Notes under the pieces: model-generated
Told to the model about the DNA's origin: nothing
Database searches by the model: none
The model's input: only the letters and a program-made list of their open reading frames with translations
Shown: positions 1 to 7,436 of the stretch, one piece after another
Layout: the number at the start of each line of letters is the position of its first letter
Position numbering within the stretch: the first letter of the stretch is position 1
IMG/VR virus record: IMGVR_UViG_2660238346_000006
Location: 1 to 8,003 of that record
Strand: one strand, 5' to 3'
Source: a virus
Lineage: Duplodnaviria > Heunggongvirae > Uroviricota > Caudoviricetes
DNA: 8,003 nt
Position numbers and translations under genes: made by a program

Positions 1-67
1 CGCTTTACGTGCGACATATTCCCGTCCATGAACCCTTCACCACACCCCAAAGTTCACTTTGGTTATT

Positions 68-82
68 GCGCTTTGTCAGCGC
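68..82 (-). promoter_or_regulatory. Putative nutL boxB hairpin (P22-type, GACAA loop) on the leftward transcript
   Basis: Plus strand reads GCGCTTTGTCAGCGC, so the minus strand reads GCGCTGACAAAGCGC: a 5-bp GC stem with a GACAA loop, matching the P22-type boxB as I recall it. It lies left of the OL-like operators, where a pL transcript would carry nutL. Confidence 0.5.
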
Positions 83-149
83 CGTAGATTCATATTCGAA
101 TCGTTGTATATTCACCGCCCTGGTGAGTAGTGCGTCCTGCTGATGGGTG

Positions 150-270
150 AACTTTATCGGAATGATAAATTAATGGCAATAGCAAAATGATAAATTCTCT
201 TGGTTTTCAAATATCGTATTGATTCTTATGGTGTTTTATTTTGTTGTAGGAATTCGACAGGATAAATAAA
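150..270. promoter_or_regulatory. Putative OL/pL operator region with repeated TGATAAAT-type half-sites
   Basis: ATGATAAATT occurs at 162-171 and again at 187-196; TTTATC-N5-GATAAA inverted repeat at 154-170; GATAAAT at 261-267. The same motif family recurs in the cI/cro intergenic region (2621-2694). No sizeable ORF here. Confidence 0.45.
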
Positions 271-373
271 GAGATTTGAGGGAGATCTGGATTGCGTTGT
301 TTAGCAAGTTGTATCTATCAGTTTTTCAATAAATACAATCGATTATGTGTTTTTAGGTGGGCGAACGTGGGGC

Positions 374-399
374 AAAGAAAACCCGGCGCTGAGGCCGGG
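374..399 (-). terminator. Rho-independent terminator closing the leftward cI / toxin-antitoxin-chaperone operon
   Basis: Minus strand reads CCCGGC-CTCAGC-GCCGGG followed by TTTTCTTTG, starting about 10 nt after the stop of the SecB-like gene (409): GC-rich 6-bp stem, 6-nt loop, T-tract. Confidence 0.6.
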
Positions 400-408
400 T
401 GGGGAATT

Positions 409-813
409 TCACTTATTACTGTTCGTTTCCATGGGATTGGCCAAGAAATCAAAATAAGGCAGAGTGAACCTACCAAGGTTTGACATGAGGATAATTTGCT
501 CGGCATATGTTTTTATATAGGGATATGCCATATTGGGAGCAATGGACCTTACCTCATATGATTTTGCCATTTCATGAGAAAAATCATCTTCTGACCGGAA
601 GTCAAAGTCGTATGTGATGTCCATCTCAAGCCTGCCTTCAATAGTTACGGAGGCAAAATATCTCACTCTAAATAGCTTTGAATCCTTCACATTAGTGTAA
701 AGTTCATTATTTAGATTAACGGTTGTTTTTATGGATTTTTTTGCTGTTGAATCGCCTTCTAGCCGTGTCATAACCAAGCGTTCAACTTTTTTGCTAATGA
801 GTTCAATTTTCAT
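409..813 (-). CDS. SecB-like chaperone (third gene of the TAC-type module), 134 aa
   Basis: C-terminal segment APNMAYPYIKTYAEQIILMSNLGRFTLPYFDFLAN parallels the conserved E. coli SecB segment ([35 protein letters not shown], recalled from memory). Size is right for SecB-like chaperones. Start ATG overlaps the upstream antitoxin stop (ATGA at 810-813). Confidence 0.7.
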   Translation of the reverse strand: MKIELISKKVERLVMTRLEGDSTAKKSIKTTVNLNNELYTNVKDSKLFRVRYFASVTIEGRLEMDITYDFDFRSEDDFSHEMAKSYEVRSIAPNMAYPYIKTYAEQIILMSNLGRFTLPYFDFLANPMETNSNK

Positions 814-1466
814 GGTAATAATAAGTAATTTCCGTCAGAAGTCATTTCGTCATTCAGGTTGCTAGCCGCTGTGAAACTTGATGACAAGTTACTTATCAAA
901 GAAAAAACATTCCGTTTTTCTTTGCATTTGCCGTTACCCCTTACTGCGCTGAACAACATTTTTGAAAAGTAAGATTCTGTAGCCTTTTCAGCGAAATAAG
1001 CAGAAGGTGATGTGACGGCTGACTCACACCGAGCAATGACGCTAGTCATGGCTGTTTCTTCTTCCTCTGCGTCAACTAGGCTCCATTCAATTGCGCTCAT
1101 ATCTTGAATTAAGATATCTGCAGGAATTCCAAGTCCGTCATGTAGTCTACGGATCATTGAAAGACTTAATGGACGCTTACGATTTAAGACCTCAGATACT
1201 TTAGATGCTGAGCCAATGTATTGTTTCATATCGGCATAAGAGAGGCCTTGTTGATCCATACGGAACTTGATTGCTTCTATGGGATCTGGCTTGTCCATAG
1301 GGAACTCGCGTGACTCATAGTGCTCGATAAGCAAGCCTAGTAGTTCAAACTCATCAAAATCTTCAGTTCCAGGTTGTAAATCACTAGACGCAAGTTCAAT
1401 GAGCCTTTCCATAGCTGCAGCATGCTCTTCACTATTTTTAATGATGCGCCAGCTAGTTCGATTCAT
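810..1466 (-). CDS. higA: HigA-type antitoxin (XRE-family HTH) with ~90-aa C-terminal extension, putative chaperone-addiction region, 218 aa
   Basis: Residues ~95-130 (GSASKVSEVLNRKRPLSLSMIRRLHDGLGIPADILIQD) match the C-terminal HTH of E. coli HigA (GSKSMVSRVLSGKRKLTLEHAKKLATRFGISPALFID, recalled). The ORF then continues ~90 aa beyond where HigA normally ends. ATGA overlaps with higB upstream and the SecB-like gene downstream. Confidence 0.75.
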   Translation of the reverse strand: MNRTSWRIIKNSEEHAAAMERLIELASSDLQPGTEDFDEFELLGLLIEHYESREFPMDKPDPIEAIKFRMDQQGLSYADMKQYIGSASKVSEVLNRKRPLSLSMIRRLHDGLGIPADILIQDMSAIEWSLVDAEEEETAMTSVIARCESAVTSPSAYFAEKATESYFSKMLFSAVRGNGKCKEKRNVFSLISNLSSSFTAASNLNDEMTSDGNYLLLP

Positions 1467-1750
1467 TTAAGCCTCCACTTGTCGTACTCTGCATGAGTTC
1501 CAACTCTTTCAACTATGACCATTCCTGCCTGGTAAACAACTTGGACAACGAGCCGATAGTTATTGCCTTTTATATTAAAAATTACCCTGTTGTTAGGAAG
1601 GAAGTCGGCAGAATTAAATCTATTCCGTATGTCTTGAGTCGTTTTCCAGTTTTCTCTTATCACTTCATCATACCAAGAGTCTAAAGCCCCCTTGGCCTGA
1701 TTGTGCTTCTGGCTAAAACTGTGAAGCTTCTCTACGTTTAAGACCTTCAT
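1463..1750 (-). CDS. higB: HigB-family toxin (ribosome-dependent mRNA interferase, RelE superfamily), 95 aa
   Basis: FNIKGNNYRLVVQVVYQAGMVIVERVGTHAEYD aligns with E. coli K-12 HigB FNVGGNELRVVAMVFFESQKCYIREVMTHKEYD (recalled). Toxin-first gene order is typical of HigBA. Stop overlaps antitoxin start. Confidence 0.8.
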   Translation of the reverse strand: MKVLNVEKLHSFSQKHNQAKGALDSWYDEVIRENWKTTQDIRNRFNSADFLPNNRVIFNIKGNNYRLVVQVVYQAGMVIVERVGTHAEYDKWRLK

Positions 1751-1762
1751 AATCCGATTTTG

Positions 1763-1804
1763 TTCCCTCTTTGGGAATTATAGATTCATTTCCCATAAAG
1801 GGAA
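1763..1804. promoter_or_regulatory. Twin palindromes TTCCC-N5-GGGAA upstream of higB; candidate operator/promoter of the TAC module
   Basis: TTCCCTCTTTGGGAA at 1763-1777 and TTCCCATAAAGGGAA at 1790-1804 lie 13-54 bp upstream of the higB start, inside the 136-bp cI-higB intergenic gap. Type II antitoxins commonly autoregulate through palindromic operators. Confidence 0.45.
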
Positions 1805-1886
1805 TCTGTATTTTTATCCAGAAATGCTATGTACATCACCCAAACGTCTCTTCAGGCCACTGGTTACCAGCTATGTGACGATGAAG

Positions 1887-2591
1887 TCACGAACTTTTCA
1901 GCCACTCCCTTGCCTCGATGTCATCCAGATGGCGAGATTGCTTCAGAATACCAGCTACATACTCCACCTTTGCTACTTGATGATAAGGCAACGTTATAGG
2001 CCTGTGATCCTGGTTAATGCTTGTAAATTGGTATTCTCCATCTCTGTCATAGCCAAGAACCTTAATCATGTTGTGTCCTTCAACGGTTCTGACAAACACC
2101 TCATCACCCGGGAATACTTTGGTGTTAGGCTCAATGAGTACATATTCTCCTGATTTTATTCTGGGCCACATGCTGTCTCCTTTCACACGAAGACCAAAGG
2201 CATCTGGATCATCGCTATAAATTTTGAGCCACCCATCGCGCTCTTCGGTCATCTCGATGGCACCATCAACACCAAGAATTGCCTCACCAACCACGCGCAC
2301 TAACCCTTTTCTTACCTGACCGACAAAAGTTAAAGAATCTGAGAATGATGCAATTGGTGTTACATCATGTACCAAATCAAGCCACCCATTAGGTAACCCA
2401 AGCGCGGCTTCAAATTTTCTTGCTAGTTTATCCCCTATGTTTCGAGTGCTTTTTTCACCGGAGACTTGCGTGAGTTGAGAAGGGCTAACCCCAAGCTTAT
2501 CGGCAAAGCTTGCATTAGTGTTACCCGCGATTTTTTTATGCTCATCTAGCAAAAACGCCAGATTCGATTTGCGAATATCTTTGTTTTCCAT
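1887..2591 (-). CDS. cI: CI-like prophage repressor (N-terminal HTH, C-terminal S24/LexA-like autopeptidase), 234 aa
   Basis: HTH-like N-terminus (FADKLGVSPSQLTQVSG). C-terminal domain has the S24 catalytic-Ser motif (VKGDSMWPRIKSGEYVLIEP) and a downstream Lys (NMIKVL). Divergent from the cro-like gene across an operator-rich spacer. RBS GAGGGA upstream of ATG. Confidence 0.85.
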   Translation of the reverse strand: MENKDIRKSNLAFLLDEHKKIAGNTNASFADKLGVSPSQLTQVSGEKSTRNIGDKLARKFEAALGLPNGWLDLVHDVTPIASFSDSLTFVGQVRKGLVRVVGEAILGVDGAIEMTEERDGWLKIYSDDPDAFGLRVKGDSMWPRIKSGEYVLIEPNTKVFPGDEVFVRTVEGHNMIKVLGYDRDGEYQFTSINQDHRPITLPYHQVAKVEYVAGILKQSRHLDDIEAREWLKSS

Positions 2592-2704
2592 CTCACAATT
2601 TTCCCTCTATTTAGCAAATGGATAAATACGCAATATGATAAATTTACATTGCGGTTGATTTATCAAAATGGTAAAGTTGTTCTGTGTGATAAACGGAGGC
2701 ACTA
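2592..2704. promoter_or_regulatory. OR-type operator / divergent promoter region (PRM-like leftward, PR-like rightward)
   Basis: 113-bp spacer between divergent cI and cro-like genes containing GATAAAT (2621-2627), inverted TGATAAAT (2636-2643) and ATTTATCA (2658-2665), and TGATAAAC (2687-2694). Motif shared with the OL-like region at 154-267. Confidence 0.6.
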
Positions 2705-2938
2705 ATGAGTAATGAACTACTACGCTGGCGAAAAGAGGCTTCTAGCGAGGAATGGAAGCGACTCGCCGCATTAGCGAAAACTTCAGTTGGCTATCTTGAC
2801 CAGATTGCATATGGATTTCGAAGAGCTTCCCCTGATAAAGCGAATGCAATCGAAGAAGCTACTCGTAATTTCACGGGTTATAAACCTGTGAAAAAGGAAA
2901 ACCTAGTGTTCGTATCGCGTAGAGCATCGGCTGCATAA
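2705..2938 (+). CDS. cro: Cro-like small DNA-binding protein, 77 aa
   Basis: First rightward gene after the operator region, strong RBS (GGAGG) before ATG, small basic protein. Assignment is mainly positional; family membership not verifiable by eye. Confidence 0.6.
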   Translation: MSNELLRWRKEASSEEWKRLAALAKTSVGYLDQIAYGFRRASPDKANAIEEATRNFTGYKPVKKENLVFVSRRASAA

Positions 2939-2976
2939 GTAACACCGCTATTTTCACAATGGACATTCGTCCTACG

Positions 2977-2991
2977 TCGCTGACAAAGCGA
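2977..2991 (+). promoter_or_regulatory. Putative nutR boxB hairpin (GACAA loop), with possible boxA-like CGCTATTTT at 2946-2954
   Basis: TCGCTGACAAAGCGA: 5-bp stem with GACAA loop, near-identical to the minus-strand element at 68-82. Located between cro-like and cII, where lambdoid nutR sits. Confidence 0.5.
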
Positions 2992-3076
2992 GTCCCAATA
3001 TATCTGACCAACTAAGGCCATATGCGTTTCCACGCATACCTTTCAACTAACTATTCACTATTGGAAATATTAAGAA

Positions 3077-3442
3077 ATGACACAAACAAGTTACAGCAAA
3101 CTATCACAGCGTGACGTTGATCGCGCAGAAACAGATTTACTCATCAACCTATCAACGCTTACCCAGCGCGGTCTGGCAAAGATGATTGGCTGTCATGAAT
3201 CGAAGATAAGCAGAACGGACTGGAGACTTACCCAGCGCGGTCTGGCAAAGATGATTGGCTGTCATGAATCGAAGATAAGCAGAACGGACTGGAGATTTAT
3301 TGCTTCGGTCTTGTGTGCTTTCGGAATGGCATCAGACATCAGTCCGATTAGCAGGGCTTTTAAGTATGCGCTTGCTGAAATCACAAAGAAAAAACGCCCG
3401 GCGGCAACCGAGCGTTCTGAACAAATCCAGATGGAATTCTGA
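3077..3442 (+). CDS. cII: CII-like transcriptional activator carrying an in-frame 23-codon tandem duplication, 121 aa
   Basis: C-terminus [18 protein letters not shown] matches the lambda CII C-terminus as I recall it. Position between cro and O. Internal repeat [23 protein letters not shown] occurs twice consecutively. Confidence 0.85.
3158..3295 (+). repeat. Perfect 69-bp direct tandem duplication (2 copies) inside cII
   Basis: 3158-3226 and 3227-3295 are identical (cttacccagcgcggtctggcaaagatgattggctgtcatgaatcgaagataagcagaacggactggaga). Flanking bases differ on both sides. 69 bp = 23 codons, so the frame is preserved. Confidence 0.9.
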
Positions 3443-3474
3443 GGGAATTACTGGATCAATCCACAGGAGTAATT

Positions 3475-3621
3475 ATGACAAAACAACTCAGTCCTTACCA
3501 GGACAAAATTCACAAACACATACTACGTGATCGCTTCCTGTCCAGCTTCAAGCAGCCTGGTCGATTCCGGGCTGGGTTGGAAAAAGTGAAGCTGATGCAG
3601 AAGGAGAAAGGTCATGAGTAA
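3475..3621 (+). CDS. Small hypothetical protein (48 aa) between cII and O; below the ORF-track length cutoff
   Basis: ATG at 3475 preceded by GGAG (7-nt spacing); translates [48 protein letters not shown] with stop TAA 3619-3621, overlapping the O start. Hand-translated. Confidence 0.35.
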
Positions 3622-4519
3622 TCTTGCAACCGTAACACATTTAAGGCCTTCACAACGGCCTGTGGAGCGTCGTGTGGCAGAAGTTGAAGATGGTTATACC
3701 CGTCTTGCAAATGCCCTGTATGAAGAGCTTATCGGCGCAGATTTAACGAAAAATCAGAGCAAGGTTGCCCACGCCATATGCCGTAAAACATACGGCTACG
3801 GTAAAAAGATGGATCGCATCTCTGATAGTCAGTTAGCTCAAATTACCAGGCTGCCAAGACAGAAGGTAAACAAGGCCAAGAATGAGCTTATCGCGATGAA
3901 GGTTATCCTTCGCGAAGGCCAGCAAATCGGGCCTAACAAGAACATCGAGGAATGGCAAATCGAAGGGTGTCACTACTCTGGTGATAATGTCACTGCATTG
4001 GTGACAAAAAGTGTCACCAAAACGGTGACAGCGCTGTCACCAAAACAGGGACACACAAAAGAAACTATTACAAAAGAAAAAAGAAAAGATTATTCGTCCG
4101 AGAATTCTGGCGAATCCTCTGACCAGCCAGAAAACGATCTTTCTGTGGTTAAACCGGATGCTGCAATTCAGAGCGGCAGCAAGTGGGGAACAGCAGAAGA
4201 CCTGACCGCCGCAGAGTGGATGTTTGACATGGTGAAGACCATCGCACCATCAGCCAGAAAACCGAATTTTGCAGGGTGGGCTAACGATATCCGCCTGATG
4301 CGTGAACGTGACGGACGTAACCACCGCGATATGTGTGTGCTTTTCCGCTGGGCCTGCCAGGACAACTTCTGGTCCGGTAACGTGCTGAGTCCGGCCAAAC
4401 TCCGCGACAAGTGGACCCAGCTCGAAATCAACCGTAACAAGCAACAGGCAGGCGTGACAGCCAGCAAACCAAAACCCGACCTGACAAACACTGACTGGAT
4501 TTACGGGGTGGATTTATGA
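3614..4519 (+). CDS. O: Replication initiator protein O (lambda O family), 301 aa
   Basis: C-terminal half ([39 protein letters not shown]...[11 protein letters not shown]) matches lambda O as recalled. Contains iteron-like repeats plus an AT-rich tract mid-gene. Stop overlaps P start (ATGA). Confidence 0.9.
3968..4090. repeat. Putative replication origin: four iteron-like repeats with TGTCAC...GTGACA symmetry followed by an AT-rich tract, inside O
   Basis: Repeats begin near 3968, 3989, 4012 and 4034 (about 21-23 bp apart): TGTCACtactctgGTGATA, TGTCACtgcattgGTGACA, TGTCACCaaaacGGTGACA, TGTCACCaaaacagGGACAC. Followed by an A-rich stretch 4055-4090 (acaaaagaaactattacaaaagaaaaaagaaaag). Same architecture as ori-lambda, different iteron sequence. 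Confidence 0.6.
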
Positions 4520-5217
4520 AAAACATCGCCGCACAGATGGTTAACTTTGACCGTGAGCAGATGCGTCGGATCGCCAACAACATGCCGGAACAGTACGACG
4601 AAAAGCCGCAGGTACAACAGGTAGCGCAGATCATCAACGGTGTGTTCAGCCAGTTACTGGCAACTTTCCCGGCGAGTCTGGCTAACCGGGACCAGAACGA
4701 ACTGAATGAAATCCGCCGCCAGTGGGTTCTGGCTTTCCGGGAAAACGGGATCACCTCGATGGAACAGGTTAACGCAGGAATGCGCGTAGCCCGTCGGCAG
4801 AATCGACCATTTCTTCCATCACCCGGGCAGTTTGTTGCATGGTGCCGGGAAGAAGCATCCGTTATCGCCGAACTGCCAAACGTCAGCGAGCTGGTTGATA
4901 TGGTTTACGAGTATTGCCGGAAGCGTGGCCTGTATCCGGATGCAGAGTCTTATCCGTGGAAATCAAACGCGCACTACTGGCTGGTTACCAACCTGTACCA
5001 GAACATGCGGGCCAATGCGCTGACTGACGCGGAATTACGGCGCAAGGCTGCCGATGAACTGACCTGTATGATAGCACGAATTAACCGTGGTGAGACGATA
5101 CCTGAACCAGTAAAACAACTTCCTGTCATGGGCGGCAGACCTCTAAATCGAGCACAGGCTCTGGCGAAGATCGCAGAAATTAAAGCTAAGTTCGGACTGA
5201 AAGGAGCAAGTGTATGA
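4516..5217 (+). CDS. P: Replication protein P (DnaB helicase loader), 233 aa
   Basis: Sequence [44 protein letters not shown]... is essentially lambda P as I recall it. Translationally coupled to O and ren. Confidence 0.9.
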   Translation: MKNIAAQMVNFDREQMRRIANNMPEQYDEKPQVQQVAQIINGVFSQLLATFPASLANRDQNELNEIRRQWVLAFRENGITSMEQVNAGMRVARRQNRPFLPSPGQFVAWCREEASVIAELPNVSELVDMVYEYCRKRGLYPDAESYPWKSNAHYWLVTNLYQNMRANALTDAELRRKAADELTCMIARINRGETIPEPVKQLPVMGGRPLNRAQALAKIAEIKAKFGLKGASV

Positions 5218-5504
5218 CGGGCAAAGAGGCAATTATTCATTACCTCGTGGCGCATAAGAACTTCTGTGCACAGGACGTTTCCGCGGTAACAGGCGCAACC
5301 GTAACCAGTATAAATCAGGCTGCGGCTAAAATGGCGCGGGCAGGAATCCTTGTCATTGATGGTAAGGTCTGGCGAACGGTGTATTACCGGTTTGCTACCA
5401 GGGAAGAACGGGAAGGAAAGGTGAGCACGAACCTGATTTTTAAGGAGTGTCGCCAGAGTGCAGTGATGAAACGGGTATTGGCGGTATATGGAGTTAAAAG
5501 ATGA
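5214..5504 (+). CDS. ren: Ren protein (lambda ren homolog), 96 aa
   Basis: MTGKEAIIHY...VTSINQAAAKMARAG...VWRTVYYRFATREEREGK...KRVLAVYGVKR closely matches lambda Ren (96 aa) as recalled. Start overlaps P stop. Confidence 0.85.
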   Translation: MTGKEAIIHYLVAHKNFCAQDVSAVTGATVTSINQAAAKMARAGILVIDGKVWRTVYYRFATREEREGKVSTNLIFKECRQSAVMKRVLAVYGVKR

Positions 5505-5528
5505 CCATCTACATCACTGAGCTTGTAA

Positions 5529-5560
5529 CAGGCCTGCTGGTAATCGCAGGCCTTTTTATT
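5529..5560 (+). terminator. Putative rho-independent terminator downstream of ren (tR2-like position)
   Basis: CAGGCCTGC-tggtaatc-GCAGGCCT followed by TTTTTATTT: GC-rich 8-9 bp stem and T-run. Lambda has tR2 just downstream of ren at the start of the nin region. Confidence 0.5.
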
Positions 5561-5589
5561 TGGGGAAGAGTAATTGGAGGCTTTAAGAA

Positions 5590-7158: not shown

Positions 7159-7298
7159 TTGACGTGATGATTTATTCGGGGCTATATTCCTCACGCGCCA
7201 GCAAAATCTGGCGTCGGGATTTGCACCCCGGATATTCAACCGCGACAGACACACGCCGCGAGCGTGTTTTTTGTTGTCGTAAGCACACGCACATCTGA
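7155..7298 (+). CDS. Small hypothetical protein at the ninF position, ~47 aa
   Basis: In-frame GTG at 7155 overlaps ninE stop (GTGA) with GAGGA upstream; alternative ATG at 7167. Product [47 protein letters not shown]; family not recognised. Confidence 0.35.
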
Positions 7299-7436
7299 AT
7301 TATGGTGGGGCGTATGGGGGAGCCGAAAGGCTCGCCGGTTGGTTGATCCGGTAGTGCAAACCCTGTACGTCTCACCACCCAAAGATTTGCACCTGACGGT
7401 GGTGATAGTTAAATTCATCAACCAGAGGGCGTTGTC

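Follow-up and report, generated by a model that had tools for sequence, protein, structure and literature searches.

Gene content and organization of the replication region

The stretch of DNA analyzed here (the window) corresponds to the complete contig CCCD01000182.1 (8,003 bp) of draft E. coli assembly GCA_000939215.1 and covers the early-right region of a lambdoid prophage. Read from the left end, the window contains genes for a HigB-type toxin, an HTH protein and an S24 (cI-like) repressor, followed by cro, cII, orf48 (DUF2740), O, P, ren, a DUF7301 gene and the genes for Lar, NinB and Dam. Comparison of the whole window with known phages revealed a patchwork pattern. Positions 1-3230 share 98.9% identity with the Stx1a phage PV728, and positions 4041-5570 are 98.3% identical to the same phage and 94.7% identical to lambda. 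The segment 3450-4086, which covers orf48, the N-terminus of O, the iterons and part of the A+T-rich tract, shows 99.7% DNA identity to phage mEp043. The ORFs of O, P, ren and orf48 are each intact in the window. The coordinates of all features assigned to the replication region are given in Table 1.

Table 1. Annotated features of the O-P replication region in the 8,003-bp window
Feature	Position	Strand	Evidence
oop-type intrinsic terminator hairpin, lambda-like, cII 3' end / oop region	3391..3418	-	terminator scan (12 pairs, then T run)
Conserved 33-bp box ACTGGATCAATCCACAGGAGTAATTATGACAAA, oop promoter / 5' end; left joint of the mEp043-type block	3450..3482	.	sequence; PMC3349717
orf48-like small ORF, DUF2740, 48 aa	3475..3621	+	Pfam PF10872, 94.9 bits
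Hybrid O-type replication initiator gene, 301 aa	3614..4519	+	ORF list; Pfam Phage_rep_O; PHROG 277
mEp043-type O segment, putative N-terminal origin-binding domain (aa 1-150) with predicted helix-turn-helix	3614..4063	+	alignments
Iteron 1, TGTCACTACTCTGGTGATA	3968..3986	.	pattern match
Iteron 2, TGTCACTGCATTGGTGACA	3988..4006	.	pattern match
Iteron 3, TGTCACCAAAACGGTGACA	4012..4030	.	pattern match
Iteron 4, TGTCACCAAAACAGGGACA	4035..4053	.	pattern match
A+T-rich tract, presumed DNA-unwinding element; encodes Lys/Glu-rich interdomain linker	4054..4095	.	base composition
Crossover interval ACTATTACAAAAGAAAAAAGAAA, 23 bp, codons 151-158 (TITKEKRK)	4064..4086	.	multiple alignment
lambda-type O C-terminal domain, presumed P-binding	4087..4519	+	identity to lambda O 149-299
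lambda-type P, DnaB helicase loader	4516..5217	+	Pfam PF06992 Phage_lambda_P, 201.3 bits
ren homologue, end of the lambda-type O(C)-P-ren block	5214..5504	+	84/96 aa identical to lambda Ren

The order cII-O-P-ren is the same as in lambda. Upstream of the replication genes, the cII copy of the window contains a duplication of 69 bp, which preserves the reading frame and may impair cII; a twin prophage (L013) does not have this duplication. Near the 3' end of cII, window positions 3381-3482 are 92% identical to lambda positions 38592-38693. The terminator hairpin found in this segment is presumably that of oop; an Rfam scan at the gathering threshold returned no match to the oop family. The placement of oop was derived from the identity to lambda, the terminator scan and the literature (PMC3349717), and the 33-bp box at the oop promoter / 5' end is described as highly conserved among lambdoid phages (PMC3349717).

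Between oop and O the window contains the orf48-like ORF, which is absent from lambda (PMC3349717). This small ORF overlaps the start of O by 8 nt, is 98% identical to its mEp043 counterpart and 83% identical to P22 orf48, and travels together with the non-lambda N-terminus of O. On the other side of O, the start codon of P overlaps the O stop codon (ATGA), and the P product matches lambda P at 225 of 233 residues (96.6%).

Hybrid structure of the O protein

The product of the O gene matches the winged-helix Phage_rep_O family (Pfam PF04492) over residues 20-114 with 127.9 bits, well above the cut-off of 28.7, and the 'replication initiation O-like' family PHROG 277 spans the full-length protein with 455.6 bits. 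By these profiles, and because the middle of its gene holds palindromic iterons with an A+T-rich tract behind them, the hybrid O belongs fully to the lambda O family.

The two halves of the protein have very different relationships to lambda O (J02459, 38686-39585). Residues 1-150 are only 50% identical to it (72/144), whereas residues 151-301 agree with lambda O 149-299 at 150 of 151 positions (99.3%). The same division is seen at the DNA level, with 52.9% identity to lambda over 3614-4040 and 96.7% over 4065-4519. Conversely, the first 158 residues match mEp043 O at all but one position (157/158), while the C-termini of these two proteins are about 25% identical and thus effectively unrelated. 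A preliminary description of this DNA had proposed an O gene at 3614-4519 with a C-terminal half near-identical to lambda O, a non-lambda N-terminal half with embedded iterons, and a lambda-type P gene downstream. The ORF list, the alignments and the Pfam match of P bear out each of these proposals; in particular, the alignment with lambda excludes an N-terminus and iterons identical to those of the lambda origin. A PDB sequence search with the full hybrid O yielded nothing at E <= 1, and the AlphaFold2 single-sequence model was unusable (mean pLDDT 39.7, pTM 0.25).

Iterons and the A+T-rich tract

The iterons embedded in O are four 19-bp palindromes of the form TGTCAC-N7-GTGACA that together span 3968-4053. 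When the window was searched with the slightly relaxed pattern TGTCAC-N7-GKGAYA, only these four sites were retrieved, compared to an expected number of 0.00 in 200 shuffles. The start-to-start spacing of 20/24/23 bp is equal to that in lambda, P22 gene 18, mEp043 O and the O gene of Proteus phage vB_BPM-V3. At the homologous position, lambda has ATCCCTCAAAACGAGGGA-like iterons (ATCCCTC...GAGGGA), the arms of which differ from those in the window, and the iteron blocks as a whole are 50% identical.

The tract to the right of the iterons has a GC content of 21% and is strongly asymmetric, with 26 A versus 7 T on the + strand. The 40-mer from 4055, directly right of the iterons, is the GC minimum of the entire window (17.5%). 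In the lambda origin, O dimers occupy four inverted repeats, and an A+T-rich region of about 40 bp beyond these repeats is the part that opens (PMC5043065, PMC7466680). Judged by its sequence, the window origin follows the lambda design, and only the iteron arms are different, TGTCAC/GTGACA instead of TCCCTC/GAGGGA. A search of the accessible literature for TGTCAC iterons in lambdoid phages found no published description and returned only primer matches.

Boundaries of the exchanged segment

Multiple alignment of the parental sequences narrowed the joint inside O to a 23-bp interval. The last base that is mEp043-like and non-lambda-like is 4063, and the first base that is lambda-like and non-mEp043-like is 4087; the sequence is of the lambda/Stx-phage type from 4041 rightwards. 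The stretch between these two bases, ACTATTACAAAAGAAAAAAGAAA, does not differ between the parents of the mEp043 type and the lambda type; it lies in the A+T-rich tract and codes for the interdomain linker of O. On the left side, identity to mEp043 begins at 3450, and identity to the Stx1a phage and to lambda stops at 3482, so that the transition coincides with the conserved 33-bp box. The swapped cassette consists of orf48, the O N-terminal domain and the iterons, and it is flanked by two short sequences that are common to the module types. The mosaic joint that had been suspected to fall inside the gene is thereby located, and its donor type is identified as that of mEp043, Sf101 and SEN22.

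Recombination rather than divergence is indicated by the occurrence of near-identical relatives of each half in different phages and by the abrupt transitions. We conclude that the hybrid O is very probably a working initiator of the lambda O family that arose when two lambdoid replication modules underwent homologous recombination. Positions 3450-4063 on the left, with orf48, the N-terminal winged-helix domain and its four embedded iterons, derive from an mEp043/Sf101-type module, and the right part (from 4087), with the O C-terminal domain, P and ren, from a lambda/Stx-phage-type module. The exchange took place within the 23-bp A+T-rich stretch common to both parents, and its left boundary lies in the conserved oop-promoter box. 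Since the presumed DNA-binding domain and its sites moved as one block, the initiator should still fit its own origin.

Comparison with known replication modules

The modules of mEp043, Sf101, SEN22 and vB_EcoP-720R6 are 99.5-100% identical to the window in orf48, the O N-terminal domain, the four iterons and the left part of the A+T tract. However, the next gene in the mEp043-type phages encodes a 626-aa primase-helicase with Toprim and DnaB-like domains, in contrast to P in the window. The hybrid therefore shares the orf48, N-terminal domain and TGTCAC iterons of the mEp043/Sf101 type but is not a full module of this type, because both the O C-terminus and the partner gene are different. By the same reasoning, it falls outside the ori-lambda specificity type represented by lambda, 434, 21 and the Stx phages, as neither its iterons nor its N-terminal domain belong to that type. 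The right half of the gene, judged by homology, belongs to the lambda O(C)-P module.

Other O-type systems combine these elements in different ways. The Stx phages P27 and 933W have the lambda-type C-terminus and P as in the window, but they carry six lambda-type iterons instead of four iterons of another sequence (PMC7466680); for P27, synonymous mutation of the iterons has been carried out (PMC7466680). In P22 (gene 18 / gene 12) and Proteus phage vB_BPM-V3, orf48 is located upstream, and the O-like N-terminal domain and four iterons are present as well; their C-termini, in contrast, are of the P22 type (60% identical to each other and unrelated to lambda), and a DnaB-like helicase takes the place of P as partner. 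Lambdoid phages differ widely in the N-terminal domain of O, of which there are many types showing 26-57% identity; that of phi80 is 26% identical to the domain in the window. No record of phage 82 was found among the near-identical matches.

Close relatives are phages PhiR12_1 to PhiR12_5 and a prophage of E. coli SCU-104. Their hybrid O gene is 99.8-99.9% identical to that of the window in DNA sequence along all 906 bp and has the same joint; P and ren of the lambda type come next. These genomes differ from the window in the immunity (cI/cro) and nin regions and lack the cII duplication. Their annotation calls the hybrid only 'DNA replication protein O' or 'replication protein'; no description of its origin type was found.

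Since the late 1970s, textbooks have described lambda O as a two-domain protein that lends itself to recombination. Furth and co-workers (1978) and Moore et al. (1979/1981) reportedly obtained functional lambda-phi80 and lambda-82 hybrids with crossovers inside O, in which the N-terminal part is said to set the origin (iteron) specificity and the C-terminal part the specificity for P. The classical hybrids were reportedly products of laboratory selection; the hybrid in the window is natural.

Origin specificity and proposed mode of initiation

We compared the iteron arms with the predicted helix-turn-helix segments of six O-type initiators, where the recognition helix was assigned from the alignment pattern alone. 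The arm TCCCTC is paired with the predicted helix-turn-helix KLPVKRCNEAKLELVRMNI in lambda, TTTACC with GMAPTKCSTAKNELIRMGV in P22, TGTCTC with GLSRQNVNKAKKELISMNC in mEpX1 and TGTTAC with RISRSKANIAKNQLIEMGV in phiEt88. The window and Proteus phage vB_BPM-V3 both have the arm TGTCAC, and their predicted 19-residue helix-turn-helix segments are equal. Even though the N-terminal domains of these last two proteins are only 72% identical, the predicted helix segment, the arms and the spacing are the same; within the iterons, the arms are conserved between the two and the centres vary. Compared to the VKRCNEAKLE of lambda, the predicted recognition helix in the window is different. Thus, the arms co-vary with the predicted recognition helix, which supports the view that the N-terminal domain reads the arms and that the origin specificity probably differs from that of lambda.

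The remaining functional assignments are modeled on lambda initiation (PMC5043065, PMC7466680). Dimers of O would bind the four palindromic iterons via the N-terminal domain and bend the DNA, after which the adjoining A+T tract would open. The lambda-type C-terminal domain would then recruit the P-DnaB complex, and DnaB would be freed by host chaperones. In this scheme, recognition of the TGTCAC iterons by O and replication competence are predictions from the sequence. The near-identity to lambda in the C-terminal part suggests contact between O and P and recruitment of DnaB, and homology to lambda likewise points to a conserved helicase-loader interface.

Distribution of the hybrid gene

The exact hybrid protein corresponds to RefSeq WP_044695198.1 and is found on at least 12 draft contigs. 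Among 50,697 phage records, the hybrid occurs only in the five PhiR12 phages (PV340549-PV340554), where it is 99.8-100% identical (99.9% in the search of these records). Its only occurrence among 5,426 complete E. coli genomes is in the SCU-104 prophage (WP_134880859.1, 99.8%). For the two halves taken separately, the same set of complete genomes gave much larger numbers: the lambda-type C-terminal half of O is present in about 3,300 genomes, and the TGTCAC-type N-terminal half (at least 99% identity) in 171-175. In 170 of about 171 genomes, the TGTCAC-type N-terminus is joined to the mEp043-type C-terminus. The latter is also found on other N-termini in roughly 124 further complete genomes, and hence both halves shuffle independently.

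The hybrid O-P-ren block adjoins four different immunity regions, namely those of the window, the PhiR12 phages, SCU-104 and L014/L015. The GenBank records of the PhiR12 phages name K-12 MG1655 or E. coli C in the host field, and from this entry the phages are presumed to be plaque-forming. A literature search found no paper describing these phages, and the candidate publication (PMC12315714) does not mention them; from neighbouring accessions, our guess is that they come from a collection of lambdoid and ECOR-derived phages. The four immunity contexts and the PhiR12 host records argue for a functional hybrid module that is in circulation, if only rarely met with. Its rarity could reflect a less fit combination of halves or a 23-bp homology patch that seldom recombines.

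Alternative explanations

Four alternatives to a working recombinant initiator were considered, and even taken together they are rather improbable. The one that survives best regards the hybrid as a non-functional recombination scar in a decaying prophage, with an O gene that is intact by chance and drives no replication. The very low frequency of the hybrid in complete genomes, the duplication in the neighbouring cII gene and the size of the window, an 8-kb draft contig only, are in keeping with such decay; the twin prophage, however, is free of the duplication, and not only O but also P, ren and orf48 have retained intact ORFs. Furthermore, no mismatch is expected between a DNA-binding domain and iterons that were inherited together. 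Given also the recurrence of an identical protein on at least 12 contigs and next to four immunity types, and its presence in phages whose deposited genomes give K-12 and E. coli C as the hosts used for propagation, we consider a decaying scar unlikely.

The second alternative is that the TGTCAC palindromes are not initiator sites but a by-product of a peptide repeat (VTK...VT), or the sites of another protein, and that the real origin is located elsewhere. The iteron region does encode a repetitive peptide. Nevertheless, the four iterons start in codon phases 0, 2, 2 and 1, and a repeat that begins in three different phases must be kept at the DNA level rather than arise from the peptide; on this ground and because of the lambda-like iteron geometry, the peptide-repeat artefact was rejected. 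As for other proteins, the literature search found no binding data on the TGTCAC iteron type, but the location within the gene, the palindromy, the 19-bp length and the spacing all coincide with those of the experimentally defined lambda iterons (PMC5043065). The conservation of arms over centres in the Proteus phage homologue and the co-variation of arms with the predicted recognition helix point in the same direction and make this alternative very unlikely.

It is still less probable that no recombination occurred and that the N-terminal half diverged rapidly under diversifying selection while the C-terminal half was constrained. The high diversity of O N-termini in lambdoid phages would fit this explanation, but the left and right segments have near-identical counterparts in different lineages (mEp043 and the Stx1a phage PV728, respectively), the boundary is sharp, synonymous sites are near-identical too and the mEp043 C-terminus is unrelated. 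The whole-window comparison and the multiple alignment thus effectively refute gradual divergence. Finally, although the window is a short-read draft contig and the joint lies within a 23-46-bp stretch common to two frequent prophage types, an assembly chimera, in which short reads of two prophages collapsed across the common AT-rich repeat, was rejected as scarcely credible, since the closed genome of SCU-104, five complete phage genomes and independent NCBI and Logan assemblies all contain the same joint.

Implications for lambdoid replication modules

A hybrid O produced by recombination between two lambdoid modules offers little conceptual novelty: RefSeq and sequenced phages already contain this very gene, and the shuffling of phage genes it exemplifies is of the textbook kind. 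Its value is modest and lies in a natural, precisely mapped hybrid, the crossover of which falls in an A+T-rich, presumed unwinding element that doubles as the code for a protein linker. The TGTCAC origin-binding cassette is joined to three different helicase-recruiting modules, lambda P, a hijacker of host DnaB, in the window, the phage primase-helicase in mEp043 and the DnaB-like helicase in the Proteus phage. The mapped joints and these three alternative partners are a useful detail, if no surprise to the specialist. They provide a set of natural chimeras for identifying the residues in the O recognition helix that read the arms of the iterons, and for asking how the O C-termini choose their partners.

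More tentatively, and with considerable doubt, orf48, the O N-terminal domain and the TGTCAC iterons may constitute a portable unit that is bounded by two conserved linkers and that has been combined in nature with mechanistically distinct modules for recruiting a helicase, and the rare switch may represent an escape from origin-directed interference. If so, a P-dependent prophage would evade titration of O or exclusion specific for ori-lambda and keep the lambda-style capture of DnaB; the source of the interference would be the several lambda-type prophages that are often co-resident in one E. coli cell. For annotation, the entries named 'replication protein O' conceal distinct origin-specificity types, and these types matter for predicting replication interference among co-resident prophages, including the Stx phages.

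Recombination around the hybrid O gene

Across the segment at 3384-3449, which spans the 3' end of cII and oop, both lambda and the prophage of E. coli SCU-104 are nearly identical to the window. The Stx1a phage PV728 differs from the window at many positions of this segment, although it otherwise matches the left 3.2 kb, and 3384-3449 is a further small mosaic patch. The left crossover point itself varies slightly among carriers of the hybrid O, since position 3471 has the mEp043 base in the window but the lambda base in the PhiR12 phages and SCU-104.

The C-terminal half of the mEp043-type O corresponds to positions 4477-4861 of the mEp043 sequence. Joined to other N-termini, this half was found at 94-96% identity in about 124 further complete E. 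coli genomes, O157:H7 strains among them, in proteins annotated as 'helix-turn-helix domain-containing protein'. The mEp043-type C-terminal half is therefore also shuffled independently. Compared with lambda, PV728 contains additional copies of the lambda-type iterons, which form an insertion where it is aligned to window positions 3950-3990; this is consistent with the reported Stx origins with six iterons (PMC7466680).

Accessory genes and small RNAs

The ORF encoding a DUF2740 protein extends across the O start codon, with an overlap of 8 nt; such ORFs accompany the non-lambda O N-termini of mEp043, P22 and a Proteus phage. Its label of 'tail protein' in PHROGs and in some RefSeq phage records looks like a misannotation. 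In the immunity region, three ORFs of the same direction lie left of the repressor gene and are likely a toxin-antitoxin or defence insert, in which the 218-aa protein is possibly the antitoxin. Downstream of the nin genes, matches to two small RNAs both exceeded the Rfam gathering score.

Features annotated in the window
Feature	Position	Strand	Remarks
HigB-family toxin, 95 aa	within 409-1750	minus	Pfam 104 bits
218-aa protein	within 409-1750	minus	weak HTH_3 match
134-aa ORF	within 409-1750	minus	no match in Pfam search
cII with tandem duplication	3077-3442		repeat at 3158-3299
DUF2740 ORF, 48 aa	3475-3621		P22 orf48 homologue, 83% identical
isrK Hfq-binding sRNA	7195-7272	plus	Rfam 76.3 bits
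C4 antisense RNA	7298-7382	plus	Rfam 74.4 bits

Tandem duplication in cII

The cII gene of the window contains an in-frame tandem repeat of 69 bp (2.1 copies, 98% matches), and in the resulting CII protein of 121 aa a 23-residue segment that includes the HTH region therefore occurs twice. When 5,426 complete E. coli genomes were compared, each of the best matches covered 297 bp and thus lacked the duplication. It is shared by two further draft assemblies (L017 and L018), while a prophage (L013) lacks it and is elsewhere 99.97-100% identical to the window prophage. The duplication may impair CII and, as a consequence, the establishment of lysogeny.
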